A DNA stretch of 32,000 bases from positions 1,721,242 to 1,753,241 of the forward strand of contig NZ_CP061293.1 of assembly GCF_018687495.1 (NCBI RefSeq), written 5' to 3'. Below the pieces are notes generated by a model that had not been told where the DNA came from, searched no databases, and saw only the letters and a list, made by a program, of their open reading frames with translations. Source of the DNA: Polynucleobacter sp. MWH-Svant-W18. Lineage in GTDB: Bacteria; Pseudomonadota; Gammaproteobacteria; Burkholderiales; Burkholderiaceae. Each line of letters opens with the position of its first letter. The first letter of the stretch is position 1. Both the position numbers and the translations under genes were made by a program. Below, piece after piece: positions 7,758-29,790 of the stretch.

Positions 7758-7802
7758 TGGTGGCCCGGGGCGGAATCGAACCACCGACACAAGGATTTTC
7801 AA
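7758..7802 (-). repeat. displaced 3' half of tRNA-Phe (att-type direct repeat)
   Basis: 45/45 identity to 19440..19484, i.e. CCA end through T-arm to the anticodon loop TTGAAAA. Beyond 7802 the similarity collapses and no acceptor 5' strand can pair. Confidence 0.85.
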
Positions 7803-8023
7803 CTCTGTCCCCCAGACTAAACTCCCGCTAGATCTCAAAAGGTTCACCCCACCATAGGCTAACTTTGTGCACAAAACTTTCTTGGGTGTTTGTATGGGGT
7901 TGATTTGGTTGAGTTATTTTGACCCACGCAAGGAGTGAGAGAAAGTTTGGTGGCGTAGTGGGGATTTGACTGACGCAAGGATGTGATGTCCTTGTCGTGA
8001 TCGGTGTACCCCGTGCATGAACC

Positions 8024-8038
8024 GTCCTTTTAAAGGAC
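8024..8038. repeat. 15-bp palindrome GTCCTTTTAAAGGAC
   Basis: Perfect dyad 4 nt after the stop of 8042..8419. Confidence 0.8.
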
Positions 8039-8041
8039 AGG

Positions 8042-8419
8042 TTATTTAATTAGCGCCTCTACAAGACGCTCAAACATGTCATCTTCATTCATACCCGCAT
8101 AATCGCCAATTAGATGTTTAGTGATTGAACTTTCTATTTCATCCTTATCAGGCGTATTAAATAACGCTTCAACTTCATCCTCGTCATCAGCTACAACATA
8201 GTGCCCAAGATTAAAGTCATAGATCTCCCCTTCGAATTCAACTTTTGAAGTAATGATCATTTCATCCCTTCCTTCGCGCAGGCCTGCTTTATTCCAGTAG
8301 AGAATTAAATTCTCATAAAAGTCATCTACTGAATTAACTTCAAATGAACCAAAGTAGCTGTCATTATTAAAATTTCTTGAGGCATGCAAATCAAATTTTT
8401 TCATAGCAATTTTCTCCAA
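8042..8419 (-). CDS. acidic hypothetical protein
   Basis: 125-aa ORF, D/E-rich (VVADDEDEVEALFNTPDKDEIE). No recognised motif. Confidence 0.5.
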   Translation of the reverse strand: MEKIAMKKFDLHASRNFNNDSYFGSFEVNSVDDFYENLILYWNKAGLREGRDEMIITSKVEFEGEIYDFNLGHYVVADDEDEVEALFNTPDKDEIESSITKHLIGDYAGMNEDDMFERLVEALIK

Positions 8420-8642
8420 ATATTTTTCTTATTCTATCTCCGCTAGATATCAATACTAGCTATACCTCTCATCCCGATAGTCACAAAAATCAATTTAGTT
8501 CAAAAGATTACTAAAAATTCCCTGAATTCATACCAAATCGCCTGATTTTCAAAATAAGAATTATTACGAATACGAGGTGGGGTTAGATTAGATCACCAGG
8601 GGCCGAGATCTCCACTGGCGTTGAAAATTGCGCGGTAAATTT

Positions 8643-9023
8643 TTAGGGCTTGCTACTGATCGGCTTAATAGCCTGTTGGTGATGCTGGCGATCTTTCTCG
8701 AGCTTTAATTGTTGTTTTGCTGAATCTACATTACGCCTAAGAGAGGTAACTCTTGCCTGCTTGAGATTCATTGTCTTAATAGGCTTAATCATTTTGATAG
8801 CTTCATCTACAGTAAGCGCATCTTCATCCTCAGACAAGCTGGGGGCAGATGCCAAACTATTCATACCAAATTGATATTGCAGAATCAGCCGCGCATGGAT
8901 CTGACTATCGGCAAATACTGCTGTTTTAACTTGATGACCATTGATACGGACAAGGGCTTGATATTTGTTCATACAAATATTTATAGTCTCGGCGCCCCTC
9001 GGGTCTTTTAAATCATGTCGCAT
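8643..9023 (-). CDS. hypothetical protein
   Basis: 126-aa ORF with a basic, coiled-coil-like C-terminus. No recognised motif. Confidence 0.45.
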   Translation of the reverse strand: MRHDLKDPRGAETINICMNKYQALVRINGHQVKTAVFADSQIHARLILQYQFGMNSLASAPSLSEDEDALTVDEAIKMIKPIKTMNLKQARVTSLRRNVDSAKQQLKLEKDRQHHQQAIKPISSKP

Positions 9024-9235
9024 TCGGCTCTTTGCCAGCTGGCTCGCCTCTGCGATGGGGGCTTCAGCCCACCCATCTTTTCCAAAACGTGCACCACGTG
9101 GTGCTGGAAAATGATGGTCTTCTCTGTCCTAAGCGCACCAGCTGGTGCAGGACATTCGTCTTAGGCTTCGCTGGATCGGTGGCGACAGCTATCGCCACCT
9201 ATGGGGCTACCTTGCGGTGCGCCCCATATATAAAT

Positions 9236-9250
9236 GTCCTTTAAAAGGAC
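9236..9250. repeat. 15-bp palindrome, opposite orientation (GTCCTTTAAAAGGAC)
   Basis: Perfect arms, 6 nt after the stop of 9256..9693. Confidence 0.8.
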
Positions 9251-9255
9251 AAACA

Positions 9256-9693
9256 TCAACGGCCAAAGCCCGCACGTACAGCGCCGCTTGCGGCTTCAAT
9301 TTGAGTATCAAGCTCACCCGCTTCTACGGCGACCTTAATAATCTCTAGGGCTTTAATAAGCTCCTCTGCTGAGTTGACTTCTACAGCAGTCTTACCTTTA
9401 GCAAACTCAATGATCTTGGCACCATAGCGGATGTTTAAGCAAACCTTGCCATCCATAGCAACGAACCACCATTGACGAATACGCTTTTCATGTTCAATGG
9501 TTTTACGTGCGCCAGTAATGTCTTTAACTGTTTTGAATTTCTTAACAGTAAATGTACCCCCTTCTTTACTGGCTTTAGCTAACTGGATCTGCTCCCAGAC
9601 TTTGTTGGCTAATTTATTACGACGATGCAGTACTGGTGGAATAGCTGTTGGCTTTTTTGAATTAACCATTTTCAAACTGTTTAATGTGCTCAT
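9256..9693 (-). CDS. hypothetical protein
   Basis: 145-aa ORF with a basic N-terminus. GGAGAAAAAG lies upstream of the ATG. Confidence 0.55.
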   Translation of the reverse strand: MSTLNSLKMVNSKKPTAIPPVLHRRNKLANKVWEQIQLAKASKEGGTFTVKKFKTVKDITGARKTIEHEKRIRQWWFVAMDGKVCLNIRYGAKIIEFAKGKTAVEVNSAEELIKALEIIKVAVEAGELDTQIEAASGAVRAGFGR

Positions 9694-10362
9694 CTTTTTC
9701 TCCTATAAGTTAATGGGCACACTTAATTTATGGTCAGAGTTTTTGGATGGACAACCTCTTTTTGCCAAAAGCCACAAAGATCTAATGATTTGACCCAGAT
9801 CTGCTCTCCTTTTATTAGGTTTCACTAAATAACTTTGACGACAAGGCGGAAGAACGCTTTGTATGCCATCACTTATTACTACTGAAACAAGGGCAGTGAC
9901 ACCCAGTCGTTATGTCACCCTAAAGCTGGACTTAGAGTCACAGTCATGGAAATTCTGGGCAGTAGCAGAGACTTGCAGTCACTAACCAATTGGATGCCGT
10001 TGGATGTTGCTACCCAACTGACTCAAGAATGTAATTCAGCACAAAGATCGTAGAACGTAGCTCTATGGATCACGAGAAAGCCCTGCTTACACAGCAACTT
10101 TCAAACAAGACAAAGGTAGCCACTTATTGCTTTTGTCATTGTTGCGTTTTAAGCCGCACGTAAAAGGAGATAGCGAAACCGCCCTTACCAATTTGGTTGT
10201 GCTTATAGTGGTGTAGTAAAGAACTCAGCGAAAGTCCTTTTCTATTACTGAGCCTGTTGCCTAAGGCTCAGTGTAGATTGAATCTAGCGAAAATCAATCA
10301 AAAGAAAGAAATTGTGATGAGCGACAAGCGAAATCACTGGCGAATGTAGTTCGCCATAATAT

Positions 10363-11049
10363 TCATCGAACTTCTTCTACAAACCCTCTCCAGCAAAAGG
10401 AATACCAATCCTTATGTTCATTTTCTTTCTTTGTTATTGCTTTTGCTTCGGATAACAGCGGGTATTCAGAAGACCAATACTTACCATTCCATGAGGCATA
10501 TCCGCAGAATAATGGGGCCTCATAGCTTTCTGATGAGACCTCATATATGCCAACTCTAGCAGGTGGTACATCCTCCGGAAACCAAACAGTTCGTTTCACA
10601 TTTGCATACTTTTGTTGAGCTTCAAGATCGATATCTACTCTTATTTCTTCCCTATAGCGGTCAATATTTCTCATGCTGACAATTTGCTCAACAGTACTTT
10701 CTTCATCAGCAACTAGATAAGCTTCATTAAAGAAGCAGGCATACATAACATTTTTAAAGTCTTCGATAAACTGTTCTTTATCTACATCATCAACATAAGG
10801 CCACAGCTCAATTACATCAGGGGCCGCCAATGCCCAGTCATCTTCACTTGAAATTTCATTTGCATCTTCGTATGCATTGGTTTCATCTGGATATAACGAA
10901 GACATTAGAGTGTTAATGGGCTGATAAAAATCTTGATTAAGAATTCCAAAGCGCTCCATTTCAAAAAGAATTTTGTATAAGTCGTTTAAATTCTTTTGTG
11001 GACTATTTGAGTAATATGCCATTTTCTTGCTCACAAGTAATATCTTCAA
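10363..11049 (-). CDS. acidic hypothetical protein
   Basis: 228-aa ORF. An alternative start at Met10 is possible. No recognised motif. Confidence 0.5.
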   Translation of the reverse strand: MKILLVSKKMAYYSNSPQKNLNDLYKILFEMERFGILNQDFYQPINTLMSSLYPDETNAYEDANEISSEDDWALAAPDVIELWPYVDDVDKEQFIEDFKNVMYACFFNEAYLVADEESTVEQIVSMRNIDRYREEIRVDIDLEAQQKYANVKRTVWFPEDVPPARVGIYEVSSESYEAPLFCGYASWNGKYWSSEYPLLSEAKAITKKENEHKDWYSFCWRGFVEEVR

Positions 11050-11139
11050 ATTATTCTATCAGTCAAAGAAGTCTTATAAGCACTGATCTCATAATGTCGC
11101 TGGCTTGGGTAGCCGAACCGAAATTTAAAACGCTTGTAG

Positions 11140-11154
11140 GTCGTTTTAAACGGC
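11140..11154. repeat. imperfect GTCG-variant palindrome (GTCGTTTTAAACGGC)
   Basis: One mismatch in the right arm. Confidence 0.4.
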
Positions 11155-11330
11155 CATCAAATATCGTGGCGAAAATGCCACGATAAATATAAGAGAACAG
11201 TACTACTCTTATATTTTTGCCTAACTCATTGATAAAAAAGCGTTTCTTTTTCAGCCATTTTCGGTTGCCCAAACCGAATCTAAGAAAACATACTGTAACT
11301 CTGTATTTAATACATTTCAGGGAGATACAT

Positions 11331-11897
11331 ATGTCACAAGCTAGAGTTTTAAACCCACAAGAACTACGCAGAGTTTTAGATCATGTTGCTACACGCAGGC
11401 ATTCAGCACGTAATCGCGCTATGTTGCTACTTACGCACTACGCGGGCATGCGAGTAGCTGAAGTAGCCGCGCTACGCATAAACGACGTTTTAAGCGGCGA
11501 CAGCACTATTAAGGGCGAAGTACGCTTGATGCCCGATCAAACCAAGGGCAAACACGCTCGTACTGTTTACTTAAATGAACGGATGCAAAAGGAATTGGCT
11601 CAGTACATCAAGGCTATCAAAATCAAAGATGTCACTAAGCCCTTGTTTTACACGCAGAAGCAAGCAGGGTTCTCGGCCAACTCTCTTACCCAGTACTTCT
11701 TTTATCTATACCGCTCTGTTGGTTTAGAAGGTGCCAGTAGCCATAGTGGTAGACGCACATTCTTAACTGGACTTGCCAATAAAGGCACAGCGATTCATAT
11801 ATTGAAGAGCTTAGCTGGGCACCGCAACATCAGCACCACCGCCACCTATCTCTACAGCAGTCCCGATCAACTTAAGGCCGCTGTTGAGTTAATCTAA
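11331..11897 (+). CDS. short tyrosine recombinase (catalytic domain only)
   Basis: The ATG at 11331 is preceded by GGGAGA. 188 aa with YAGMRVAEVAAL (Arg), HSGRRTF (H-x-x-R), GHRNISTTATY (His..Tyr). The upstream part of the track ORF (from 11217) has no support. Confidence 0.8.
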   Translation: MSQARVLNPQELRRVLDHVATRRHSARNRAMLLLTHYAGMRVAEVAALRINDVLSGDSTIKGEVRLMPDQTKGKHARTVYLNERMQKELAQYIKAIKIKDVTKPLFYTQKQAGFSANSLTQYFFYLYRSVGLEGASSHSGRRTFLTGLANKGTAIHILKSLAGHRNISTTATYLYSSPDQLKAAVELI

Positions 11898-12236
11898 CTT
11901 CTTGGAGAAGTCACTAAACACTTCTCCAGTGTAGTTGTCATTAACCCTTGCTGTCTTTAAGTTGACAGTAAAAGCCAATCCTCTTGTGGCAAGTCGATGA
12001 CCAAACCACTTACACAGAACCTCAACTCTAGTTGCATTGTTCTTTCCATCAAGAATAAGTACTTGATCACCAAGCAAGAAAGTGCCACTAAATGTTGAAC
12101 GCCTATATTTCGCATCGGTAACATCAATTACACGAGCATTCTTAACCTTTATAGGCTTTATAGGTTTAGCTAACTTTGTCGTATGAGGAATATCACTTTC
12201 CTCTTCCCACACTGGTGCTTTGTAGTAAAAATCCAT
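11889..12236 (-). CDS. hypothetical protein
   Basis: 115-aa ORF with GAGGG 6 nt upstream of the ATG. Its 3' end overlaps the convergent recombinase gene by 9 nt. Confidence 0.5.
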   Translation of the reverse strand: MDFYYKAPVWEEESDIPHTTKLAKPIKPIKVKNARVIDVTDAKYRRSTFSGTFLLGDQVLILDGKNNATRVEVLCKWFGHRLATRGLAFTVNLKTARVNDNYTGEVFSDFSKKLD

Positions 12237-12282
12237 ATAACCCTCATATTTGCTTACAAGTTGTTATTAGGATATCAAATTT

Positions 12283-12297
12283 GTCCTTTTAAAGGAC
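12283..12297. repeat. 15-bp palindrome GTCCTTTTAAAGGAC
   Basis: Perfect dyad 3 nt after the stop of 12300..13094. Shares the flank AAATTTGTCC with 537 and 3880. Confidence 0.8.
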
Positions 12298-12299
12298 AT

Positions 12300-13094
12300 T
12301 TACTGTGCGGGGAATTTACCTAGAACCACATTCTCAATTATTAGCTCGGCACTACTTAGATACCTTTTTACGCTTGAGCCCATGGTATTCCTCCTTGCGG
12401 CATTCATAGCTGGAAAGAGCTTTGGAGAAGTCATTGCTTTGGGGATTAAGGTTAAGCTCTCACCTATCTTCCAATTGGGCACTTTTGGCTTCTTTCCTTT
12501 GTGCTTAATGTATTCGTCATATACATCTAAGGTTTTCTCTAAATTTTGTACTGTGTAATTTCTAGCCAATTGATACTTGGCATTACTTTTAGTTGATCCC
12601 TTAGTTGGTCTACCACGTCCTGCCGTATGGCGCTCTTTTAATAGTTGTGCAAAACGACTTTGTAAATACCTTTTACTAGACGTTAGTGGTACAGCAAGAA
12701 TCATCACCTCATCTTTGCTCCAACCATCTTGCCACTGTGACTTATCTTCCAGCTCTGTTAATTTCATTGCCCCATAGTTTTCGGCGAATAAATTCGGTCC
12801 TCGCTCGTCCTTAGTCCACCACTTGTGAAAGTCATCATCTCTCACATCTCCAAAGTCTTTATATAGCTCGGCATGTTTTCCTTTGCCGCCACGCTCACAA
12901 CACTCTAAATATTCTTGATTACGGCGTAAGAACTGCCACCACCAGTAATAAGGACTGCGCTTTTGATAACCAAGTGGCAGTCTTTTGTTTTTTGTACCAA
13001 ATATAGGGTACGGAGCGAGGAATCTTCTTGGCATTTTCTTGGCATGTAAATTGCAGGAATTTCTAATAGTATCAGAAATATACCCGTTCTGCAT
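12300..13094 (-). CDS. island regulator-like protein with W-x-F-L-R-R-N motif
   Basis: 264 aa. YYWWWQFLRRNQEYLE resembles the WEFLRRNPxY motif I recall from DUF6499-type N-terminal domains of integrative-element regulators (recall only). Start codon uncertain, with Met21 as an alternative. Confidence 0.5.
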   Translation of the reverse strand: MQNGYISDTIRNSCNLHAKKMPRRFLAPYPIFGTKNKRLPLGYQKRSPYYWWWQFLRRNQEYLECCERGGKGKHAELYKDFGDVRDDDFHKWWTKDERGPNLFAENYGAMKLTELEDKSQWQDGWSKDEVMILAVPLTSSKRYLQSRFAQLLKERHTAGRGRPTKGSTKSNAKYQLARNYTVQNLEKTLDVYDEYIKHKGKKPKVPNWKIGESLTLIPKAMTSPKLFPAMNAARRNTMGSSVKRYLSSAELIIENVVLGKFPAQ

Positions 13095-13170
13095 TCTAAT
13101 TTAATTATGGCTAAGCGGTTAAATTTCTTAACAAGCAGTCATATTTCTTAATACAGAAAGAGAGTTAAAA

Positions 13171-13953
13171 ATGAATGCATTATTAAACGCAGTAGATACA
13201 ACCCCTGTTACAACAAACGTCCTTTTAAAGGACACAACGAAAGTAGCTAACGTTGCTGTTGGTACTACCGTTGCCCTTACTAATATGGAAGCAAATCGTA
13301 TTAGCTGGGAACAAGGTGCCTATAGAACAAGTAATCAAGCCTTATATGCAGTATTGGGCGATTGCTTGGCTTTTTGTGGTGACCTGACACTTCCAGAAGC
13401 TAAACAACGTAGCGAATCTTTAGAGTCTTTCTATAAAGATCGTGGCTACACATATAAAAAGGATCTCCCATTAGCGACACGTGTAGTGCGTGCTGTTTTT
13501 GGATCTAGAGATCGCCGCCGTATCAGCACCTACTCTTTGGTTATTCGTCAGGCAATGAAAGAGAAAGTTTTGATAACTGACTTTTCAGCATGGGTGGAAG
13601 AGCGTGGCGGCGTTCAAGAGATCAGTCTTGGTAAGAGCGCCACTTACATCAAGCCTGCGGCCAAAGCTGAGATTGCAAAAAACAATCTAAAAGGCAAAAC
13701 ACCGATTGGCTATGCCAAGTCCGAATTGCTCTCACATGTTGCTGATGCTCAGTACCTAGGTGATATGTGCGTACTTTTAGCGGAGCAACAGGCTGACGGC
13801 AGTTTTGGTGTCTATGCAGTTTTGCGTCAAGACGGACTGGTTAAGTCTGCCTTTACCTCTTTGTATGCAGTTGGCAAAGAGCTTGAAGATAAAGCTAGGG
13901 CAGAGGTCAAAGCGGCAAATGATGCAGATGGCGCGGTTGCTAAATCTGCTTAA
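13171..13953 (+). CDS. hypothetical protein, first gene of the AAA+ module
   Basis: 260-aa ORF with AAAGAGAG upstream of the ATG. 18-nt gap to the ATPase gene. Contains a copy of the 15-bp palindrome in codons 17-21. Confidence 0.55.
   Translation: MNALLNAVDTTPVTTNVLLKDTTKVANVAVGTTVALTNMEANRISWEQGAYRTSNQALYAVLGDCLAFCGDLTLPEAKQRSESLESFYKDRGYTYKKDLPLATRVVRAVFGSRDRRRISTYSLVIRQAMKEKVLITDFSAWVEERGGVQEISLGKSATYIKPAAKAEIAKNNLKGKTPIGYAKSELLSHVADAQYLGDMCVLLAEQQADGSFGVYAVLRQDGLVKSAFTSLYAVGKELEDKARAEVKAANDADGAVAKSA
13219..13233. repeat. 15-bp palindrome inside a coding region
   Basis: GTCCTTTTAAAGGAC encodes V-L-L-K-D of 13171..13953. It is the only intragenic copy in the window. Confidence 0.8.
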
Positions 13954-13971
13954 TTAATCAAGGGGAATGTT

Positions 13972-14685
13972 ATGAGCGTTCCCCATTCTTATTTGAAAGG
14001 AATACAAATGTTTACGAAAGGAAATAATCATGAGCCTAAAACAATTGATGACATCATCTTTGGAAATAATGAATCTAAATTGCGGATTGAAGATATTGTC
14101 TCGGGTGCCGAAGAATTACCTTACAGCGGCAAATCAGCGATTCTTTTATACGGAGTCTTTGGGACAGGCAAAACCACACTGGCCAAAATGCTACCTAACC
14201 ACATTGAATATGGCAAAACTAAAGAAGAGTTAGTTTGGGATCCAGTGTTTATAGGCTGTCAGCAGGGCTTTAATGGGCCACAGCTAATGACTAAGATTGA
14301 TGCAATCATGACAACAATGTCGCTAAACGTCAGCGGCCTTCATTACTTCATCCTTGATGAGGTGGATAACTTAACCAAGCTGGCGCAACAAAGTTTGAAA
14401 ACGGCCTTGAATACGACATTAGGTGTATTTGTGCTCACAACAAACAATGTGTCGCAACTAGACAAAGGCATGTTAGATCGTTGCATCTTAGTTGAGATGA
14501 ATGCGGCAAATCCGAATGCTTATTTGGATATTGCCAAATCCATTGCCAATGAAGCAGGCATTTCGTTATCTAGTGATGAGCTGTTGCCTACTATTCAAGG
14601 GGCTAATGGGTCATTCAGAAACCTGTTTCATAACGTTGACAGGCTGGCGCGCCGCAAAAAAACTTCATCAATTTGCACTCCTTAA
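13972..14685 (+). CDS. AAA+ ATPase, clamp-loader/RFC-like
   Basis: Walker A is LLYGVFGTGKTTLAK and Walker B is HYFILDEVDNL. AQQSLKTALN and VLTTNN follow, as in clamp-loader small subunits. AAGGGG lies upstream of the ATG. Confidence 0.75.
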   Translation: MSVPHSYLKGIQMFTKGNNHEPKTIDDIIFGNNESKLRIEDIVSGAEELPYSGKSAILLYGVFGTGKTTLAKMLPNHIEYGKTKEELVWDPVFIGCQQGFNGPQLMTKIDAIMTTMSLNVSGLHYFILDEVDNLTKLAQQSLKTALNTTLGVFVLTTNNVSQLDKGMLDRCILVEMNAANPNAYLDIAKSIANEAGISLSSDELLPTIQGANGSFRNLFHNVDRLARRKKTSSICTP

Positions 14686-14693
14686 TTTGTGGA

Positions 14694-14722
14694 AATGGCC
14701 CGCGAACCCATAGCGGGCCATT
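14694..14722 (+). terminator. terminator after the ATPase gene
   Basis: AATGGCCCGC-N9-GCGGGCCATT, a 10-bp GC-rich stem 9 nt after the stop, followed by CATTCTTAT. Confidence 0.6.
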
Positions 14723-14731
14723 CATTCTTAT

Positions 14732-15250: not shown

Positions 15251-15271
15251 TCACCTTGTTCTAGTAGGTTC

Positions 15272-16546: not shown

Positions 16547-16652
16547 TTTTTGGGTGGGTTACTGTTGTCATACAGCTATTTTATTTTCTAAAAAATACTT
16601 GGACAACCGATAAGCGTTGACTTAAGCCACGCTCACTAACTAATATGCAAGC

Positions 16653-16865: not shown

Positions 16866-16869
16866 ATCT

Positions 16870-21766: not shown

Positions 21767-21771
21767 TATAT

Positions 21772-22146: not shown

Positions 22147-22182
22147 GCAGATAGATCATTATTAGAATTGAAGGTATTTTAT

Positions 22183-22515: not shown

Positions 22516-22548
22516 TGTCTGTCTCTTATTGGCCGATAGCTGCCATTG

Positions 22549-22639
22549 AGCGTCCCATAACTAGACGCCGAATAAATATGTTCCATTTAGAACAGGTAAT
22601 TAACTATCCTCTATCTAACGAGGCTTGACAGGATGAGGG
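22549..22639. repeat. junction repeat B (left boundary of the nuclease/protease cassette)
   Basis: 22549..22597 (AGCGTCCCATAACTAGACGCC...TTCCATTTAGAACA) is homologous to 29535..29580. 22606..22639 (ATCCTCTATCTAACGAGGCTTGACAGGATGAGGG) matches repeat A. Confidence 0.7.
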
Positions 22640-22648
22640 TAGCCTGAA

Positions 22649-22837
22649 TTATTTAATTGCCATATCAATAAGTTGCTTGGTATCGCTATCTATTGCTCGC
22701 GCCTTTTTAATCCAGCTTTGGCTACTCAGACAAGCATCAAGCATTCGCTTTACGGCAGCAGGATGGCTAGCACAATCTGCAAATCTAAGCCAAACTCCAC
22801 TATCAGCTTGATACTCAATTATTGCTGTTGTACTCAT
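22649..22837 (-). CDS. small hypothetical protein (last gene of cassette)
   Basis: 62-aa ORF, same strand as the cluster and 40 nt downstream of it. No motif. Confidence 0.4.
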   Translation of the reverse strand: MSTTAIIEYQADSGVWLRFADCASHPAAVKRMLDACLSSQSWIKKARAIDSDTKQLIDMAIK

Positions 22838-22877
22838 ATGAATCCTTCTTCAGCAGTGGAACATTAATGCTCAGAGC

Positions 22878-23312
22878 CTATAGAGGATATCTCTCGCCTA
22901 TTTCTGCTTGCAAAATTCCAGCTTCAGTTAATCTGAATTTATTTTTTAGCCCAATTAAATAGTCCGAATTAAATTCCTTCATTTCTCTCGGTATTGTCTT
23001 GGGATCTTTCGCAATCTTGATTAAGGCATAGGCTGGAGTGCCAGATTTAATCAAATCAATATGTCTGATTCTTTCATTTCTAGCGGTTGACGCTTCACTC
23101 ACTCCACTCCAAAGTTTTTCATCCCATAAAACATCCACCCAAGTTGGGGACTTTGGGTCCTTAGGGTCATCCCGCTTGATCTCATCTTGCCAAATGGACA
23201 AATAAACAGCGGATCCATCTGACTTGACTGCACCCCAGCTCCAACGATTATTGACCATAGGAGCTTCTAATTTATTTTCAAAAAACTCGGTGAGACTCAG
23301 TATTGATGCCAT
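22878..23312 (-). CDS. hypothetical protein
   Basis: 144-aa ORF with beta-rich patterning (NNRWSWGAV, VYLSIWQDE, AYALIKIAKD). Family not recognised. Confidence 0.5.
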   Translation of the reverse strand: MASILSLTEFFENKLEAPMVNNRWSWGAVKSDGSAVYLSIWQDEIKRDDPKDPKSPTWVDVLWDEKLWSGVSEASTARNERIRHIDLIKSGTPAYALIKIAKDPKTIPREMKEFNSDYLIGLKNKFRLTEAGILQAEIGERYPL

Positions 23313-23343
23313 GCTTCATATCCAATCTTAGAAATTTAACAAG

Positions 23344-23763
23344 TTAAGATTTATATAGGGCAAATACATCAAACGCCACCTTATATTTGTCTAAATCTTT
23401 TTTGCCTTCATTCTGAAATTGAGCAATCTCTTTTCCAACAAGCTCCATCAATTGTTGAATCTCTGAGCTCGTAATTTCATCTGGCGGCATATATCCCTCA
23501 GGATTCATTACATAAAAATTTTCTCTGTAAAAATCATCCTTTTCATGGCGAATTGAGCATCTAATTAAAGTGGGTACATTTGGGTCTGGCTCATAATTTG
23601 CAAATCCATCGATCATCGCTTGAGATAAGTCTAGAATGATTTTCTCATTAATATTAGAGCCTAAATTAAATTCGCACTCCAGAGCAATTTCGTTATTGTC
23701 AACCGCCTTACTCATTCTTTTAGACAACTTGGTTACTAATTCTGCGTCGCTATAGCCACTCAT
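23344..23763 (-). CDS. hypothetical protein
   Basis: 139-aa ORF. No recognised motif. Confidence 0.5.
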   Translation of the reverse strand: MSGYSDAELVTKLSKRMSKAVDNNEIALECEFNLGSNINEKIILDLSQAMIDGFANYEPDPNVPTLIRCSIRHEKDDFYRENFYVMNPEGYMPPDEITSSEIQQLMELVGKEIAQFQNEGKKDLDKYKVAFDVFALYKS

Positions 23764-23859
23764 AAATATCCCTTCTTACTTTTTTAGTTAATTTTTTCTA
23801 CTTAACGCTATGAATGTGTCATATGCCGATGGAACTCAAAACAGGGAATTTTATTTAAA

Positions 23860-24795
23860 TTAATCAAAGAAAATATCGTCTTTATCCTGCCGCATTCCAG
23901 CCATAAAAGCGCCAGCAAATTTCTCTAAGGTAGTAACAAATGCTTTTGTATCAATACCAAACTGGGTAGATAAAAAGTATCTGCCGTAAAGGTAGAAACC
24001 ATCAGATTCTGATCCAGCTGCAAAAAACTGAGGGCGAGCAATTGTAGAATTCAGTAAATTGATAAAGCTATACATATCTACCTCGCTCACGCCTGGCTTA
24101 ACGCCAGCATAAGTATGAAATTGAAGTAGGTTTGTATCGGCATCAAATGTCATGAAAGTACCAAATTCAATATGATCATTTGAGACATATAGATCTTGAT
24201 CATCATCTAATGATGGCGCAAAACCAGCATCATCTAATACCTTTTTCAAAGCCTCAATACAAATATCGCCTGAATTAATAAAATTTTCATTTTTCATATT
24301 TTCTTTTCCTTTTTCTAGAATTTTTATAGCGCCCTCATAATCTATTTCACCATTTGCAATGCCAACTATTGATGGAGCCAGAAACTCAATGTATTCACTC
24401 ATTTCATCCAACATCTTATTGAGCTCGCTACCAATATCCTCAACACCCTTCTCCAAAGCCTCAATAGATCGTGCATGAATATAATTTAAAACTCCTGATT
24501 TAGAAAAATATAAATTTCCTTCATCTTTCCTAAAGTGGAGACAAAGATCGATAATTTCTTGTGTTGCCTTTTCAGGAATACTAAATCTAACTGTGCCAAC
24601 CAATGTCAACATTCCCTCCTCATCCCCATCTGCCTCATCTGCGATTAACAAGCAGTCAAGACCATACTCGCCTCCTGCAGCATATCCAAAGGATAGACTG
24701 GAGCCTTTTCCATCCTCCCTTTCCTCTGGCCTCTCCTCCCATCCAATAGCTTCAAGCCACTTAATTATTTCTTTTTTTATTACTTTCCTAGCCAT
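23860..24795 (-). CDS. tandem YbjN-like (T3SS-chaperone-like fold) protein
   Basis: The ATG at 24795 is preceded by GGGGAG (the track start at 24810 lacks an SD). There are two repeats of the YbjN pattern. The C-terminal half (ALKKVLDDAGF..DLYVSNDHIEFGTFMTFDADTNLLQFHTYAGV..MYSFINLLNS..YLYGRYFLSTQFGID) is the clearer match. Confidence 0.45.
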   Translation of the reverse strand: MARKVIKKEIIKWLEAIGWEERPEEREDGKGSSLSFGYAAGGEYGLDCLLIADEADGDEEGMLTLVGTVRFSIPEKATQEIIDLCLHFRKDEGNLYFSKSGVLNYIHARSIEALEKGVEDIGSELNKMLDEMSEYIEFLAPSIVGIANGEIDYEGAIKILEKGKENMKNENFINSGDICIEALKKVLDDAGFAPSLDDDQDLYVSNDHIEFGTFMTFDADTNLLQFHTYAGVKPGVSEVDMYSFINLLNSTIARPQFFAAGSESDGFYLYGRYFLSTQFGIDTKAFVTTLEKFAGAFMAGMRQDKDDIFFD

Positions 24796-24822
24796 ATACT
24801 CCCCAATCATAGAAAACTATTA

Positions 24823-25815
24823 TTAATAAATTCTCTTCTCTTTCGGTAGCCATTTAACAGATTCATCAAGCCAATCTGATACAGCACTTGACCTAAGAAT
24901 GGACTCTCTAACCCAATCGCGCATTAGATAATTACCTGTATCTGCATATTTTTTTAATACATTAGGGCATATTGAATCAAGAGAAATTAAATAATGTAAT
25001 TTTGATTTCTCTAGCCACTCAGAGAGATTTTTTTGATCTTCAACGCTAGATATTTTTAATTTAACTTGAACACTAATATCTTCACCCGTAGGTTTTGCCA
25101 TTCCATCCATATTGAAATCAGGTGGAACTCTTGCAAAGAAATCAATGTCCTTAAAAAAGCCGCCCTTATATGCTGGCACAAAGCATTTTTTATCTTCAAA
25201 TAATTTTGCAAGTAAAGTCTCAAACTCAACGCTTGAGAGGCAATCAAGCGGATCAACTCTAAAACCATCTTGCCATTTCTTGGTCAAAAATTGAATTGCA
25301 GCAATGTTTCCAGAATACTTTTCATTCTTTCCAATCTCCGCAAATGTACGTCGGGAAAAAGCTGGGTTTGCCTTCATACTCGCAAGGATATATGGGACCT
25401 TTGAAACCGGCATTGGCTCAGAAAGCAATTCAATATCAAAGTATTTGGGCCAATCTATCCGATCGACCATGGCGCCCTTGTGTTTTTTAAATTTTATTTT
25501 TTCACATTCCTTTGGCTTCCCTATCATCCTATAAACCCAAACCATTCCAGAATCTATGGTGACTATATGAACTTCATATTTTTTTTCCTCTAAGTCTTCA
25601 TTGATTTTAAGAAATCTTAAAACTTCATTTTTTTGTTGGGTCTTTAATTTTTCTGAAAAATTGCCACTTAGAGTTTGCTCAACACTATCGCCTCCAAAAA
25701 AAATTGGAGCTCTTTTGCTAGCCAACCAAAATTCTGCAGGGCTCTGTCCATTAATGTTATAGCCTTCATAGGGATGCTTGATATTTAAATTAAAAAATTT
25801 TATTTTCTTATTCAT
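24823..25815 (-). CDS. unknown N-terminal domain fused to an Mrr-like PD-(D/E)XK nuclease domain
   Basis: 330 aa. SVEFETLLAKLFEDKK..YKGGFFKDIDFFAR..ISVQVKLK is the classic Mrr_cat pattern (FE..l, D-x-D, Q-x-K). The start ATG shares one nt with the stop of the upstream gene (TAATG). Confidence 0.6.
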   Translation of the reverse strand: MNKKIKFFNLNIKHPYEGYNINGQSPAEFWLASKRAPIFFGGDSVEQTLSGNFSEKLKTQQKNEVLRFLKINEDLEEKKYEVHIVTIDSGMVWVYRMIGKPKECEKIKFKKHKGAMVDRIDWPKYFDIELLSEPMPVSKVPYILASMKANPAFSRRTFAEIGKNEKYSGNIAAIQFLTKKWQDGFRVDPLDCLSSVEFETLLAKLFEDKKCFVPAYKGGFFKDIDFFARVPPDFNMDGMAKPTGEDISVQVKLKISSVEDQKNLSEWLEKSKLHYLISLDSICPNVLKKYADTGNYLMRDWVRESILRSSAVSDWLDESVKWLPKEKRIY

Positions 25816-27284
25816 TATTTTTTATAACTCTTAACTATCTCAACCATTGCCCACGTATCTTGTTCACAATATTTCAATAGATTTTTTCTAATTTCCTGCT
25901 TTTCTTTTTCTGCCATTTCATCAGAAACCAGCTGCTTGTAGGCTTCTTGTGCCATTCCACCGTTTTGCACCGCTAAATCTTTGTAACTTAGATTTGTGAC
26001 AGTTGGTAGCAATTTCTTAATCGACCAAGATCCTTTCATATCCGGGTGGTAGTAATGCTCCTTAGAGAGTTTGTATAAGTCAAAAAGTCTCTCTTCAATC
26101 TCTTTTAGCTTTGGCTGTAAATCAGGGAATAGTCGACCCATCTCCCTAATCCTCGATTGCTCAAAACTACTATAGACAAATATCGTCCCAGAACCACCCA
26201 ACACATTAATCAATGATTCGGTAAATTTACGTCTAGTATCCAGGCTCTCGGTATCTAAGAATTCTTTATGCTCAATGGCGGCTTCATCACTCTCAACGTG
26301 ACATGACCACTGAAAGGGTATTTGTGCAAAAGGACGAGTATTAGGAATTTTAGGAATGGCATAGCTTATGGTTTCAAAGTCTAAGTAAAAACGGGGATAA
26401 GCCAAGGCATCAATAGTTAACTTAGCGGCTGGATCTAGCTCTGCAATCCCTGACTTTGTAACTCTATGAACTCGAAGATGCCTTTCTTTTTCCAATAAAC
26501 CATCTGGCACTTCTCGCAGATCTTTATAGCCTGCAATTTTTAATTGCTCAACCACCTTAGCCGCATAAGGCAATATCTCAATGGGGTATTCCGTTTTTTC
26601 CTCAAAAGAAGAGCAATGCTCATAAAACGGACAGTCAAAAGGCTTGGTGCATTGATCTCCCGTTTTAATCTCTACTGGCTCATTTTTTAATGCTACTGTG
26701 CTCTTGGCATCGCTTAGCCACTCTGGGACCAGATCAACGAGGCTCTTTACTTCATCGGTGAGATTAACCTCTTCTAAAAATCCATCGTAATTATTGTCTC
26801 CGCCATACACAAATTGACTATTAATATGAGCTAGGTAGCTCATTACAGGCTTAGGCTGTGCATTTCTCAGTACCCACGTTTGAATTGCTACGTCCTGAAA
26901 TTGATAGGGCTTAACCGACGTAGAAGATTTAACTTCAACTAGCTTGTAATGTTTATCCTGCGGGAATAGCAAATCTACCCTAACCAGTAAGTCATCAGTA
27001 ATAAACGCGGGCTCAAATAGGGGAAGGTTTGGAGATTTACGTATCACCGCATCGGTTAAATCCAACGCCTCCTTAGAAGACTTGGTGCTAATAAACTCAC
27101 CCTCTGGTGATAGCTCTCTTGCTAAAGCGCCCACTTCATCCCCAGCAGCTATTCGCATCAAACTATCTGAATCCTGCTTAGCAAGCTCATGACGATACGT
27201 AGCTAACCAAAGCCTGCGTGGGCATTGAAGGTTTAAAAGAAGCTTTGACTTGGTTAGCAAAATAGCGTTGTTTAATTTATGCAC
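25815..27284 (-). CDS. DUF2779-type dual nuclease: Cas4-like PD-(D/E)XK with Fe-S cysteines, plus DEDD exonuclease
   Basis: 489 aa. The N-terminus has QCPRRLWL, RVDLLF..LVEVKSS (D..E-x-K) and CTKPFDCPFYEHC. The C-terminus has FYLDFETIS, VYSSFEQSRI and YCEQDTWAMVEIV (exo I-III). The GTG start overlaps the upstream gene by 8 nt. Confidence 0.7.
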   Translation of the reverse strand: MHKLNNAILLTKSKLLLNLQCPRRLWLATYRHELAKQDSDSLMRIAAGDEVGALARELSPEGEFISTKSSKEALDLTDAVIRKSPNLPLFEPAFITDDLLVRVDLLFPQDKHYKLVEVKSSTSVKPYQFQDVAIQTWVLRNAQPKPVMSYLAHINSQFVYGGDNNYDGFLEEVNLTDEVKSLVDLVPEWLSDAKSTVALKNEPVEIKTGDQCTKPFDCPFYEHCSSFEEKTEYPIEILPYAAKVVEQLKIAGYKDLREVPDGLLEKERHLRVHRVTKSGIAELDPAAKLTIDALAYPRFYLDFETISYAIPKIPNTRPFAQIPFQWSCHVESDEAAIEHKEFLDTESLDTRRKFTESLINVLGGSGTIFVYSSFEQSRIREMGRLFPDLQPKLKEIEERLFDLYKLSKEHYYHPDMKGSWSIKKLLPTVTNLSYKDLAVQNGGMAQEAYKQLVSDEMAEKEKQEIRKNLLKYCEQDTWAMVEIVKSYKK

Positions 27285-27882
27285 TCATCATTCTGACTAT
27301 TTCACTAATACCCTTTTGTAGTTGTGCGTCAGACATGGCGACAAAGCTTGCAATTGCCTCAGACTTTCCAACGGATATACCTTTAAGGCACAAACTTGAT
27401 TTATAGCGAACTGTTCCACTTCCGTCTTCATCGACATTCATCTCGAAGTTACCAAGAATCATGTCATTTAGATTTACCTCTCCAATGTAAGTGGCCATGT
27501 TTTCTGTCTCATCATCACTTAAGCCAGATAGCCCTGCTGGATAACAATAAAAGACTATCAAAGGATGGTTTGGATAGTATTGCTCGGTTACCTCAATAAA
27601 AACTGGAGCCTCCCTGGAAACGACCTCGGCAACATCATCATCCAAATCATTAAGGTTTAAGGTATAAGCAAGCGTTGCATTTTCTGAGTCTTCAGAAATA
27701 TCAATCGTATCCTCATTACCGAGAATCCCTTTCCACCAGCCCATAAGAGAGTAGGTTCCAACTTTAACTTCACGAGTTTTTGTCTCAATTTCACCAGTCT
27801 CTTCATTTTCAATTGTTTCTGATTGAATAAACTTAATACCGTGAAATTCATCCTCTTTTGGTAAGTCTTTTAATGAAGTCAT
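27277..27882 (-). CDS. acidic YbjN-like protein
   Basis: 201 aa. The acidic N-terminal half is followed by PVFIEVTEQYYPNHPLIVFYCYP..MATYIGEVNLNDMILGNFEMNVDEDGSGTVRYKSSL, which matches the YbjN-family pattern by eye. Confidence 0.45.
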   Translation of the reverse strand: MTSLKDLPKEDEFHGIKFIQSETIENEETGEIETKTREVKVGTYSLMGWWKGILGNEDTIDISEDSENATLAYTLNLNDLDDDVAEVVSREAPVFIEVTEQYYPNHPLIVFYCYPAGLSGLSDDETENMATYIGEVNLNDMILGNFEMNVDEDGSGTVRYKSSLCLKGISVGKSEAIASFVAMSDAQLQKGISEIVRMMSA

Positions 27883-27965
27883 GTGGTTCCTTTTTTGTTA
27901 ATTAAATAGGCTTTTTATCATTCCAAGATTGATAATAATTAAACTTTAAATTAATAATTTACTTT

Positions 27966-29330
27966 TTAATGGGTCAATTGGGCTGATTGCGCAATCTTTT
28001 TGGAATATGTACTTTCCTTGTTGGAGAAGCCCATTTCCCTGAAGTCTTGATGTGTTAGTAACTTCTTATTTAATAGCTCGTTAACTATGAGCTCCAAGCT
28101 ATCGCGATGCTCTGTAAGCAAAAACCTTACAGCCTCGTATTGCTTTTCCAGCAAAGTGCGAGCTTGATTTGAATAATAATCATTAGTCTTGCTCGCTTCT
28201 CGGTCTGGGATGAAAAGATTGGAGCCTAAAAGCTCTTTCTCCCCGTGCACACAATCAAATCCGCCCTTAGTTACTAAATCAAATGCAATTCGTGATGCAC
28301 GCCTTAGATCGTCTTGCGCCAAGTGAACATCGACTTCAAGTTGTCCACAAATTAATTCTTCAGCTGCTCTGCCAGCTATTGCGATCCGAATTTTGGTGCA
28401 AGCCGCCTTAAATGAAAGAGGTCCTTCAGTCTCGTAGGCACGCTGATAGTCCTCTACAACTATGCCAACATACCCTTTACCAGGGAGAATAGTTGCAATC
28501 TCAGGAATATTTTTATTTCCCGATTCTAAAATCGTGACGAGTGCATGTCCCGCTTCGTGAACGGCAATCTGTAAATCGTGTTTATTTCTAGTGGACTCAT
28601 ATCCATCCCCAGTTCCACTTGTAACGAGGCGGTAAATATCTTGCCACTGTATTTGCCTGTTTTGAAAATGGGCAATACGCTTTAAGGCTGATGCCAGCAT
28701 ACCAATCCTTCTGAAAACTGGAAAATCAGAACATAGAATGCACCCCAGCCTATTCATTGAATTCAATATCGAGATATCAAACTTTTCAGTACCAACCAAG
28801 TCTATTAGGTCTTGCCCGATGAATTCTGGCGTTGGCTCCATCCACTGCAGATGGCGATCGAAGATCCCTTGATACCTAAAGCAAGTCGCAATATCTGCAT
28901 AACTGTCAGAAACTAAAACACAAACAATGGGTTTACCAACCAAATTTTTAAGAAATTCAGTGGTTTTTTTTTGCTTTTGGAGTGATTCGTCATCATTACT
29001 AGAAGATTGAATCCAATCACCAGATTCTATGAATACTATCTTTGGATAAGAAAAGTTTTTACCAACCAGATCTTCGATATCAAATATCTGCGTGGAATTT
29101 AAATATTGAAACCCAATATTTAATTGCTCACTTATCAATCTGATGGATTGTTCACAATCATCAGCGTCTTCTCCCTCTACGACTAAGCCGTGTCCAAGAA
29201 GCTCCCATCTGTCTTCAGGAAAAGATGCTCCAATAGTTTGCTTGAGCTCTTGTGTCCATTTCCACAAATATGTTTGCCTGTCTTTAGTCTTATCTAATAC
29301 TAGTTTCGTTGCAGGATAAATGGACGACAT
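27966..29330 (-). CDS. soluble FtsH-like protein: degenerate AAA+ module plus M41 zinc metalloprotease domain
   Basis: 454 aa with no TM segment. IAVHEAGHALV (HEXXH) and IAGRAAEELICG, LAQDDLRRASRIAFDLVTKGGF align with the FtsH protease domain. At the Walker A position it has GLVVEGEDADDCEQS instead of GPPGTGKT, and at Walker B it has IVFIESGD instead of hhhhDE. Confidence 0.75.
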   Translation of the reverse strand: MSSIYPATKLVLDKTKDRQTYLWKWTQELKQTIGASFPEDRWELLGHGLVVEGEDADDCEQSIRLISEQLNIGFQYLNSTQIFDIEDLVGKNFSYPKIVFIESGDWIQSSSNDDESLQKQKKTTEFLKNLVGKPIVCVLVSDSYADIATCFRYQGIFDRHLQWMEPTPEFIGQDLIDLVGTEKFDISILNSMNRLGCILCSDFPVFRRIGMLASALKRIAHFQNRQIQWQDIYRLVTSGTGDGYESTRNKHDLQIAVHEAGHALVTILESGNKNIPEIATILPGKGYVGIVVEDYQRAYETEGPLSFKAACTKIRIAIAGRAAEELICGQLEVDVHLAQDDLRRASRIAFDLVTKGGFDCVHGEKELLGSNLFIPDREASKTNDYYSNQARTLLEKQYEAVRFLLTEHRDSLELIVNELLNKKLLTHQDFREMGFSNKESTYSKKIAQSAQLTH

Positions 29331-29534
29331 TTTTTTCCTTTTCTTAGCGCAGTTTTTTTCAAGAATGGAAAACTGCCTCTTAATGCTTAACCTCTATTTT
29401 AAGAATTTAGCGAATTAAAGTAAAACTGATTTTTATTTAACAAATAAAAGAAGCGAGAAAAATATATGGAATTAAAGTCAAGTATTTTTTATATCTATGG
29501 CTTTAAATTTTGTGGGGGCTTGTTTCTTAATTCA

Positions 29535-29580
29535 AGCGTCTCGTAACTAGACGCTTAACTTTTTTATTCTAACTAGAACA
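29535..29580. repeat. right-hand copy of the cassette boundary repeat
   Basis: AGCGTCTCGTAACTAGACGCTT...TTCTAACTAGAACA is homologous to 22549..22597. Includes the hairpin AAGCGTCT-N7-AGACGCTT followed by a T-run. Confidence 0.65.
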
Positions 29581-29713
29581 CAAAATACCACGCCAACTCA
29601 ACGCTGCGGATGCCATTTGGGAAATATTTGAAACCGCTGCGAGCCACGAGATTCGGTGCTTGTAGGGCGGTTGGTCGCAACCAGCTTAGACCTAATGTGC
29701 AGAACTGTTTTAG

Positions 29714-29727
29714 TCCTCTATCCTACG
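29714..29727. repeat. junction repeat C (TCCTCTATCCTACG) fused to the tRNA 5' half
   Basis: Matches the TCCTCTATCT(A/T)(A/T)CG cores at 19659 and 22607. Directly abuts the anticodon-loop breakpoint. Confidence 0.55.
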
Positions 29728-29790
29728 TTTTCAATCCTCTGCTCTACCGACTGAGCTACCAGGCCAAGACTTGGGATTATAAATGAAACT
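29728..29790 (-). repeat. orphan 5' half of tRNA-Phe plus about 25 nt of upstream flank
   Basis: 29728..29765 is identical to 19478..19515 (anticodon loop to the 5' end). The next roughly 25 nt (AAGACTTGGGATTATAA..GAAACTG) resemble 19516..19540. Confidence 0.85.

Follow-up and report, generated by a model that had tools for sequence, protein, structure and literature searches.

The tRNA-Phe locus of Polynucleobacter sp. MWH-Svant-W18 (Burkholderiales, Burkholderiaceae) was examined in a 32,000-nucleotide (nt) stretch of contig NZ_CP061293.1 (positions 1,721,242 to 1,753,241 of the forward strand). This whole stretch is referred to as the window, all coordinates are those of the window, and L-numbers denote the collected loci and contigs that were compared with it. 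ARAGORN identified a single tRNA-Phe(GAA) gene in the window, which is located on the minus strand at 19440-19515, has an Rfam tRNA match of 68 bits, and is 100% identical to Polynucleobacter tRNA-Phe. Four exact partial copies are present on the same strand: a displaced 5' half comprising tRNA positions 1-38 (29728-29765), a displaced 3' half comprising positions 32-76 (7758-7802), and two 22-nt fragments comprising positions 55-76 (17931-17952 and 16870-16891). An initial annotation of the sequence had listed one intact gene plus four partial copies, and ARAGORN and a k-mer scan reproduced its coordinates exactly. It had also placed the breaks of the two longer copies in the anticodon loop and noted a hairpin plus T run of differing sequence behind every 3' copy, both of which were confirmed. 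The 38-nt match ends at the 3' edge of the anticodon loop, the 45-nt match starts at its 5' edge, and the two share exactly the 7-nt loop TTGAAAA (TTTTCAA on the plus strand), while terminator-like hairpins with a T run and dissimilar stems directly follow all four 3' copies on the minus strand (19430-19407, 17921-17900, 16859-16841, and 7749-7727). The same anticodon-loop limits recur in L017, L201-207, and L215 as well as in 94 exact copies of positions 1-38, as is characteristic of an integration sublocation class. All four fragments are ends of the tRNA in the orientation of the gene, with the 5' piece upstream and the 3' pieces downstream, which is the configuration recognized by Islander. 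The 3'-end 22-mer occurs four times versus 0.00 expected from 100 shuffles, and both 22-nt copies lie within a 45-nt repeat having 95.6% identity (16867-16911 versus 17928-17972).

These features bear directly upon the possibility that integration played no part and that the fragments instead derive from a dispersed repeat or from tandem tRNA duplicates that have decayed. A short palindrome is indeed spread through the window and forms part of the tRNA-downstream flank, while L119 and L199 both contain a decayed full-length pseudo-tRNA 775 nt upstream of the intact gene. However, the fragments of the window are exact, are always tRNA ends in the right orientation and configuration, break at two classical integrase sublocations, and bound DNA that is variable between genomes, with one of them bounding an integrase-bearing element that recurs with the same ends. 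Furthermore, the palindrome contains no tRNA sequence. A dispersed repeat unrelated to integration, which had been named at the outset as the observation capable of overturning an integration scenario, is thus excluded, and we consider this class of explanation to be scarcely credible.

The native and imported parts of the locus could be distinguished by comparison with relatives. On the right side, an ycaO gene encoding an OsmC-YcaO fusion (Pfam OsmC, YcaO, and YcaO_C) occupies 29813-32000 on the minus strand, where it is cut by the window end, and its product shares 83-88% amino acid (aa) identity with Polynucleobacter and other Burkholderiales homologs. In L009, L014, L017, and L006, ycaO is followed by the native promoter and an intact tRNA-Phe without any 5' half. 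The 5' side is therefore empty in these four relatives, and the 3'-side content is different in every relative. In the window, the ycaO-tRNA intergenic region (29766-29812, minus strand) matches the region upstream of the relatives' intact ycaO-adjacent tRNA-Phe, and its native promoter type (..AGTTTCATTTATAAT..CTT) adjoins the displaced 5' half rather than the intact gene. The intact gene has another upstream arm and promoter (CAGTTCCGCTATAAT), which are common to L007, L015, and many metagenome contigs. On the left side, the native tRNA-Phe terminator (7749-7727) and downstream flank (7586-7757, minus strand) are 84-90% identical to the tRNA-proximal flank of relatives and are always closer to it than is the copy at 19269-19439. 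The relatives' consensus terminator and flank (ATAGCCCACTTGTTGGGCTAT...) consequently stand behind the 45-nt fragment, and the downstream side of the intact gene is a diverged homolog of the native flank with a different hairpin. From the native promoter at the 5' half and the consensus terminator at the 45-nt fragment, we can conclude that the outermost pieces are the native halves of the gene and that everything between them was imported. The internal similarity extends past the tRNA sequence, as 16 nt (and more weakly up to ~25 nt) upstream of the 5' half resemble the promoter region of the intact gene, and ~170 nt beyond the 45-nt fragment are alike as well (7586-7807 versus 19269-19491, 81% over 229 nt). 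The intact tRNA-Phe was probably reassembled from element-borne and native parts, which identical sequences prevent from being read directly.

None of the inserted genes has a homolog within 10 kb of ycaO in 80 relatives, which argues for insertion over conserved synteny, as had been proposed. The first gene past the outermost 3' fragment encodes a Crp/Fnr regulator (6834-7550, minus strand, Pfam), whose homologs are 77-95% identical across Polynucleobacter (87% to P. paludilacus). Exact-sequence look-ups of the window's Crp/Fnr and integrase gave no match. In L215 (Crp/Fnr 90% aa identity), the Crp/Fnr gene lies directly behind the last tRNA-Phe fragment and a native-type terminator, and it is plausible that Crp/Fnr is the native neighbor of tRNA-Phe in the window's lineage. 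The P. paludilacus Crp/Fnr gene is located next to a tRNA-Met gene, yet a degenerate 3' fragment of tRNA-Phe still precedes it. At this locus (L208 9838-9905, P. paludilacus CP061298), a degenerate short arm, tRNA-Phe positions 55-76, and a hairpin terminator are found right upstream of the Crp/Fnr ortholog, and the locus adjoins rpoD and tRNA-Met(CAT) rather than tRNA-Phe, which suggests relocation of a segment that was once linked to tRNA-Phe.

Among the imported segments, the largest on the 3' side is island A (7803-16869, minus strand), which was characterized using Pfam, PHROGs, NCBIfam, and Rfam. Behind a 424-aa tyrosine integrase (15272-16546, minus strand; Pfam PF00589, phrog_1) are a 172-aa open reading frame (ORF; 14732-15250), a clamp-loader-like AAA ATPase (13972-14685), ORFs of 260 aa (13171-13953), 264 aa (12300-13094), and 115 aa (11889-12236), a small second tyrosine recombinase on the plus strand (11217-11897), a 228-aa ORF (10363-11049), a Polynucleobacter-1 RNA on the plus strand (9891-10025, Rfam), a DUF6641 gene (9256-9693), two small ORFs (8643-9023 and 8042-8419), and a distal X arm (~7803-7940) that is conserved with L201-204 and L017. 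The integrase has 2562 homologs at E < 1e-20, and the contexts of three of these (80-84% identity) contain the same order of integrase, AAA ATPase, two ~260-aa genes, small recombinase, and DUF6641. An exact copy of tRNA-Phe positions 32-76 (33-76 in L206) was found after the DUF6641 end of L201-204, L206, and L207, where a conserved X arm precedes it. The 45-nt 3' half is also present at the same element end in L017 and L215. The layout of L207 is like that of the window, with an intact tRNA, two cassettes bounded by 22-nt fragments, the element, and the 45-nt fragment. Based upon this recurrent gene order and the recurrent 32-76 ends, island A is a classical integrase-bearing island that replaces the 3' half of the gene at the anticodon loop. 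Its integrase had no phage match in phage records and was ≤30% identical to plasmid integrases.

Two other genes of island A merit separate description. The second recombinase is short (190-226 aa), contains only an XerC/D-like catalytic domain, and is a conserved core gene in all subfamilies of the element (26 loci); resolution, inversion, and directionality are candidate roles. The Polynucleobacter-1 RNA, an orphan Rfam motif (RF01718, 69-95 bits), occurs within the island-A subfamily, both in the window and in L207 (12904-13041), L206 (15939-16075), and L201 (9552-9692), and no copy was detected in those 5'-replacing sister elements that were tested. The RNA and the DUF6641 gene are divergent in the window, L206, and L207, with the RNA ~200 nt upstream. 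The window has no co-directional gene within 1.2 kb after the RNA, which is a misfit with its published 'cis-regulatory' guess.

Between island A and the intact tRNA are two short cassettes without an integrase. Cassette C (cargo 17953-19268) carries arsH (18529-19281, plus strand; NCBIfam ArsH at 390 bits, above the cut-off, and Pfam FMN_red) together with an arsC of the low-molecular-weight phosphatase type (17986-18465, minus strand; Pfam LMWPc). It is delimited on one side by the downstream arm of the intact tRNA (19269-19439, minus strand), which came with cassette C and includes the terminator at 19430-19407 and a 67-nt double-palindrome unit. This arm is 81% identical to 7586-7757 and 78-86% identical to the tRNA-proximal flank of relatives. 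The other side is a junction (17900-17972, minus strand) comprised of a conserved ~20-nt arm (CAGaCATCCTcGGCCCTGG), tRNA positions 55-76 (17931-17952), and a terminator (17921-17900). This arm-fragment-terminator unit (17898-17977) is 96% identical in L007 and is found in L009, L014, L017, L206, L207, and L215 as well. Cassette B (cargo 16892-17899, minus strand) encodes two small signal-peptide-like proteins (17491-17856 and 16920-17429), neither of which has a Pfam match, and it ends at a second junction of arm, tRNA positions 55-76 (16870-16891), and terminator (16841-16911, minus strand). The terminator of this junction (16859-16841) is the proximal arm of island A, and the downstream 220 nt are 89% identical to L147. 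Thus, the 22-nt repeats of the window bound cassettes of 1.0-1.5 kb, just as in additive flexible genomic islands. One- and two-gene cassettes elsewhere carry a GNAT gene (L007 and L014) or porin and sulfite-oxidase genes (L009), and others were found in L017, L206, L207, and L215, while none of about ten 22-nt cassettes examined contained an integrase. From the similarity of the flank behind the intact tRNA to those of relatives, we infer that it is the tRNA-proximal flank of a donor, carried along with an ars cassette that was excised between the donor tRNA and its downstream fragment.

The 5' side of the gene is occupied by imported DNA as well (19516-29727). Next to the displaced 5' half is the Y1 arm (the attL arm, 29531-29727, minus strand, with a hairpin at 29534-29556), which is the end of a 5'-replacing element family and is 74-94% identical over 135-200 nt in 50 loci with unrelated cargo. 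Relative to L007, the Y1 arm is 88% identical and ycaO is 77% identical. The adjoining R1 cargo (22641-29530, minus strand, 38% guanine-plus-cytosine [GC] content), which was annotated using Pfam, NCBIfam, and PADLOC, consists of seven co-directional minus-strand genes encoding an M41-peptidase-like protein (27966-29330), a 201-aa protein (27277-27882), a DUF2779/RecB-like nuclease (25815-27284), a 330-aa protein (24823-25815), a YbjN-like protein (23860-24810), and proteins of 139 aa (23344-23763) and 144 aa (22878-23312). No homolog of the R1 cargo was found in about 200 related loci. R1 is followed by a partial internal copy of the U arm (22601-22640, minus strand; repeat 19652-19680 versus 22601-22628, 93%) and by the R2 cargo (19686-22600, minus strand), which contains an autotransporter (19721-21766, minus strand; Pfam Autotransporter beta-domain) and two small ORFs (21772-22146, minus strand, and 22168-22515, plus strand). 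About 86 nt homologous to the internal U-arm copy are present within the insert of L007, and the copy is probably a remnant junction between two successive 5'-side modules. The estimate of at least five modules made initially is therefore reasonable, since the tRNA pieces delimit four intervals and the partial U-arm copy splits the right module.

The element-derived U arm itself (19516-19685, minus strand) lies upstream of the intact tRNA. Many loci, among them the integrase-bearing L129 and L135, have arms with 70-87% identity to it that precede either an intact tRNA or a displaced 5' half. The promoter of the U arm, TAGACA-18-TATAAT (19555-19526), is the best promoter-like match of the region (11/12). 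In L126 and L166, a promoter of this type adjoins displaced 5' halves, which is the outcome expected from serial accretion. The right module thus contains both end arms of the 5'-replacing type and matches an island of the 5'-fragment class, in which a new 5' part and promoter are supplied, and Pfam scans detected no integrase within it. The suggestion that each element brought its own tRNA end plus terminator accordingly holds for the 3' side, but not for the 5' side, where a promoter and a 5' half were brought instead.

Additional features of the arms and cargo of the right module were also examined. The low-GC R1 genes (22878-29330, 38%) encode M41-like, DUF2779/RecB-Cas4-like, and YbjN-like proteins plus four of no assigned family, and they may constitute an uncharacterized defense or toxin system as island cargo. 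No AAA ATPase domain was detected in the M41-peptidase-like protein. A known defense system was rejected, as the sole PADLOC result was a weak match to a Cas4-like nuclease domain. One occurrence of the motif GGATAGA / GATAGAGGA lies in the Y1 arm (29684-29727, TAGGATAGAGGAC), and two others lie in the U arm (19600-19670, GATAGATAGAGGAT and CAGGATAGAAAAT). These repeats may be arm-type sites for integrase binding. A further motif, ACAGT-N6-9-CATT-N7-AAGC, is common to the Y1, Y4, Y5, and Y6 arms. This motif has a -35/-10-like layout and is found in several Y-arm families, but it fails the criteria of the promoter scan and was classed as an unassigned conserved site rather than as a promoter. 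The Y arm was similarly dismissed as a structured RNA or chimeric 5'-half RNA, as RNAalifold of 40 sequences yielded -6.6 kcal/mol with just 2 covarying pairs and the single-sequence fold had a z of +0.3. The Y-arm hairpin scores as a terminator on the opposite strand.

The 5' arrangement is not limited to the window. A 1-38 half next to ycaO is also present in L007 and L018, and in L007 a 6.7-kb insert precedes the intact tRNA. We scanned viral and metagenome collections for 5' junctions, defined as tRNA-Phe positions 18-38 followed by a non-tRNA base, and found the junction (tRNA positions 1-38) in at least 120 freshwater metagenome contigs and none in the viral collection. The sequence past tRNA position 38 belongs to a small number of conserved arm families. 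Fifteen of the 5'-junction contigs also hold an intact tRNA located 0.8-13.4 kb further on, and six have two 5' halves. Clustering of the ORFs revealed three layouts in which the gene set of island A reappears behind 5' junctions. In the first, 170-210 nt separate the 5' half from the start of the integrase (L091, L094, L175, and others, with two such elements in tandem in L135); in the second, the integrase occupies the far end of the element and is oriented divergently from the intact tRNA (L128 and L196); and in the third, cargo is located between the Y1 arm and the integrase (L129, L169, and L190). Complete integrase-bearing 5' elements are present in L128, L129, L135, and L196. The integrases of the 5'-junction elements are 38-48% identical to that of the window and are accompanied by the same accessory genes, and the integrase subfamilies track the junction type. 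L160 and L199 each have a 5' half, but the 6-10 kb that follow the intact tRNA contain no exact 22-nt 3' fragment, indicating that 5' modules exist independently of 3' modules.

This independence speaks against another explanation, in which one composite element of ~22 kb with its own complete tRNA-Phe was inserted once into the anticodon loop of the native gene, dividing it into the two outer halves and supplying a spare copy. Such an element would account for the outer halves overlapping by exactly the 7-nt loop, like the attL and attR of one event, and for both the promoter and terminator sides of the intact gene being diverged homologs of the native flanks, as if the whole locus had been imported. 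However, L017 and L207 contain the 45-nt 3' half together with an intact tRNA next to ycaO and have no 5' half, while the converse, 5' halves with an intact tRNA and no exact 3' fragment downstream, is found in L160 and L199. The junction types also differ in their integrases, with one subfamily accompanying the 45-nt end and others accompanying the 5' junctions, and the arms beside the 5' half and the 3' half are from different element subfamilies. As each junction type occurs independently, the composite element was rejected, and we regard it as very improbable.

Several other loci illustrate the diversity of such junctions. The viral scan for the tRNA 3' end yielded unrelated elements only. 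One of the viral contigs, L220 (IMG/VR UViG_3300025206_000016, 13065 nt), has the same 45-nt tRNA-Phe 32-76 sequence at both ends and no protein similarity to the window, and it is either a circular element caught with its attP site or a provirus with both att sites. In L119 (9801-10576) and L199 (848-1623), the intact gene is preceded at a distance of 775 nt by a pseudo-tRNA-Phe that is full-length but decayed at its 3' end and has a promoter of its own, and the arm families Y2, Y3, and Y7 have kept weak similarity to tRNA positions 39-53. The pseudo-tRNAs and these arms suggest that some attP sites derive from complete tRNA copies. In L147 (regions 137-610 and 5855-6522 in tRNA-sense coordinates), a degenerate tRNA 3' end (GATTCCACCCCAGGCGACCA) comes immediately after a 5' half and its Y1b arm and is followed by a 220-nt arm that is 89% identical to window 16652-16889. 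The opposite end of the L147 module consists of a stretch resembling window 7935-8048, a U arm, and the tRNA, in this order. Apart from the L147 mosaic, no homology was found between X and U arms or between Z and Y arms.

Overall, the ~21.9 kb around tRNA-Phe is best explained by repeated site-specific integration on both sides of the gene by tyrosine-integrase elements, a reading to which we assign a probability of roughly 80%. The integrases would catalyze these events by strand exchange within the 7-nt loop, and the following order is the one that we favor. Island A would have crossed over in the 7-nt anticodon loop using an attP site that carried tRNA positions 32-76 and its own terminator. 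Since this attP brought its own 3' half, the native 3' half and terminator would have been pushed out to 7758-7802, next to Crp/Fnr. Later, the two integrase-less cassettes would have crossed over in the T-loop/acceptor region (55-76), each bringing a 3' end, a short arm, and a terminator. On the 5' side, one or two modules (19516-29727) would have crossed over in the same anticodon loop using an attP with a promoter and tRNA positions 1-38, and the native promoter and 5' half would thereby have been stranded next to ycaO (29728-29812). The working tRNA-Phe would now be transcribed from an element-supplied promoter, while the right module would have kept both end arms and have lost, or never possessed, an integrase.

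A number of observations weigh against this reading. Island A alone carries an integrase, whereas the right module and both 22-nt cassettes are without one, and 13 of the 15 fully bounded 5' modules elsewhere similarly lack an integrase. The entry of such modules is compatible with mobilization in trans, decay after entry, or homologous exchange. Neither an excised circle nor an attP junction was seen for any of these elements. Downstream of the intact tRNA, the arm matches the native flank for ~170 nt, which is longer than a minimal attP needs but would fit the capture of a donor flank, and L147 mixes pieces of both junction types, indicating that rearrangements beyond simple integration have occurred at the tRNA-Phe locus. 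The flanking genes likewise only partly fit the initial annotation, which had considered both to be core-looking genes outside of the fragments: ycaO is the native neighbor in relatives, while Crp/Fnr is conserved and has the same place in L215, but is sited elsewhere in three complete Polynucleobacter genomes. The suggested comparison with an empty site showed the 5' side to be empty in the four relatives mentioned above, but a fully empty Crp/Fnr - tRNA-Phe - ycaO site was not found among the relatives examined.

The scarcity of integrases also raises the question of whether only island A was integrated, with the integrase-less modules having been swapped by homologous recombination between Polynucleobacter strains using tRNA pieces and arms as anchors. 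Consistent with such exchange, integrases are absent from most of the bounded 5' modules and from every 22-nt cassette seen, the arms remain 74-94% identical over 135-200 nt in genomes whose cargo is unrelated, the cargo GC is near that of the host, and Polynucleobacter additive islands have been described as using a shared gene pool. However, homologous exchange cannot create tRNA half-copies, so the junctions must come from site-specific events. The same arms also flank integrase-bearing elements, so deletion derivatives or mobilization in trans fit equally well. Thus, we consider it unlikely that homologous exchange explains all of the integrase-less modules, although it may contribute. Site-specific integration on both sides of the gene remains our preferred reading.

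A broader interpretation, which we put forward tentatively and consider rather doubtful at present, is that tRNA-Phe serves as a two-sided cassette platform for a single family of elements. Within this family, sister lineages of integrases, accompanied by the same accessory genes, would cross over in the same 7-nt loop, with the attP of one lineage comprising the 3' half plus terminator and that of the other comprising the promoter plus 5' half. Because the two attP types carry opposite halves, cargo could pile up on both sides of the gene. Integrase-less modules with authentic arms would be moved in trans, and each displaced 5' half would leave a live tRNA promoter reading into cargo. As a corollary, since the crossover segment is present in both outer halves, excision of the entire 22-kb array in one piece, with restoration of the native gene, would in principle be possible.

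The remainder of the window contains several features outside of the inserted modules. The left flank includes two 117-aa ORFs (152-505 and 3495-3848) that, together with their flanks, form a 74%-identical duplicate (76-551 versus 3419-3894), and their sole homolog in the collected loci (~50% aa identity) is located in L174, upstream of a tRNA-Phe 5' fragment. It also contains Sulf_transp, HMA, and a second Crp-like gene, which resemble the sulfur/metal cassettes of Polynucleobacter additive islands. The perfect palindrome GTCCTTTwAAAGGAC, often with GGGG ~10 nt after it, is dispersed in the window (755-770, 2408-2434, 3876-3897, 6783-6806, 7652-7667, 8019-8043, 9231-9253, 12279-12300, 13215-13234, 16652-16675, and 19335-19350), and a partner palindrome, GTCGTTTTAAACGAC, occurs at 536-552, 708-724, 7606-7622, and 19287-19304. 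A 67-nt unit with both palindromes is present in three copies having 87-88% identity (704-770, 7606-7667, and 19284-19350). The palindrome copies are intergenic, are found in the islands and left flank as well as in the tRNA-Phe flanks of relatives, and may represent an operator or a repetitive extragenic palindromic (REP)-like element.

The locus has several implications for the study of genomic islands. A single tRNA gene can take cargo on both sides, and it is largely through islands linked to tRNA genes that abundant freshwater bacteria acquire new genes. Use of the 5' side requires an element-borne promoter, and this side is heavily used in nature at the tRNA-Phe locus. Island finders that seek only 3' fragments, or that require an integrase, would miss most of the locus. 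Sister integrases that share a crossover and carry opposite gene halves also provide a natural system for the evolution of attP polarity and arm architecture and may perhaps yield integrases for engineering.

Many features of the locus have precedents in known systems. Among the 3919 islands of Islander, 3760 have 3' fragments and 159 have 5' fragments, 2083 are anticodon-centered, and 125 tandem arrays were reported (Hudson et al. 2015). Like these islands, the window has an intact tDNA and displaced cognate fragments in the same orientation, a tyrosine integrase inside island A, and an arrangement in which a newer island would have pushed an older one outward, but it uses both ends of the gene at once. 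Three of its four to five modules are without an integrase and two are <2 kb, so Islander filters would reject them. In Klebsiella, clade I.d integrases integrate upstream of arg2, and two strains have islands on both sides. This case and the 5' type of Islander resemble the window in having an element upstream of a reconstituted gene, a 5' fragment left behind, and one tDNA occupied on both sides. However, the Klebsiella case is described as using a D-loop sublocation, whereas the 5' block of the window ends at the anticodon loop, within the same 7 nt used by the 3'-replacing sisters. In comparison with known 5'-fragment islands, the 5' type is also very common at the tRNA-Phe locus, given that at least 120 contigs have it, some of them with 5' halves in tandem. 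For tycheposons, too, tandem arrays that include partial tRNAs have been described, and additive genomic islands next to tRNA genes are known from Alteromonas, 'Ca. Methylopumilus' (freshwater Methylophilaceae), and Polynucleobacter asymbioticus. The window shares with additive islands a cargo of metal resistance and sulfur genes, and its integrase-less 22-nt cassettes match the additive pattern. The published accounts of additive islands that were examined mention 3'-end repeats on one side of the tRNA only and no promoter-bearing 5' halves, whereas the window has both.

Cis-mobilizable elements (CIMEs), such as those related to Streptococcus ICESt1, are att-flanked, integrase-less modules in tandem with an integrase-bearing relative and are the basis of accretion-mobilization. 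The integrase-less modules of the window are CIME-like in that they have att-type junctions, no recombination genes, and a tandem arrangement with an integrase-bearing element. They differ in that the sole integrase of the window is from the 3'-type subfamily, whereas the arms of the right module are of the 5' type. There is also a likeness to integrons, as short one- and two-gene cassettes with a conserved recombination-site-like repeat are found at a fixed platform. However, there is no IntI-type integrase and no attI or attC site, the integron-integrase NCBIfam models scored 22-43 bits on the window versus cut-offs of 265-435, and the repeats of the window are tRNA ends. In the papers examined, we found no description of sister lineages that share an anticodon-loop crossover while carrying opposite gene halves, or of the abundance of the 5' type at tRNA-Phe. 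The carriage of opposite halves by sister lineages at the same crossover is thus a modest novelty. Islands with 5' fragments, tandem arrays, and two-sided tRNA occupancy are already known, and the window is a clear example of this uncommon arrangement.

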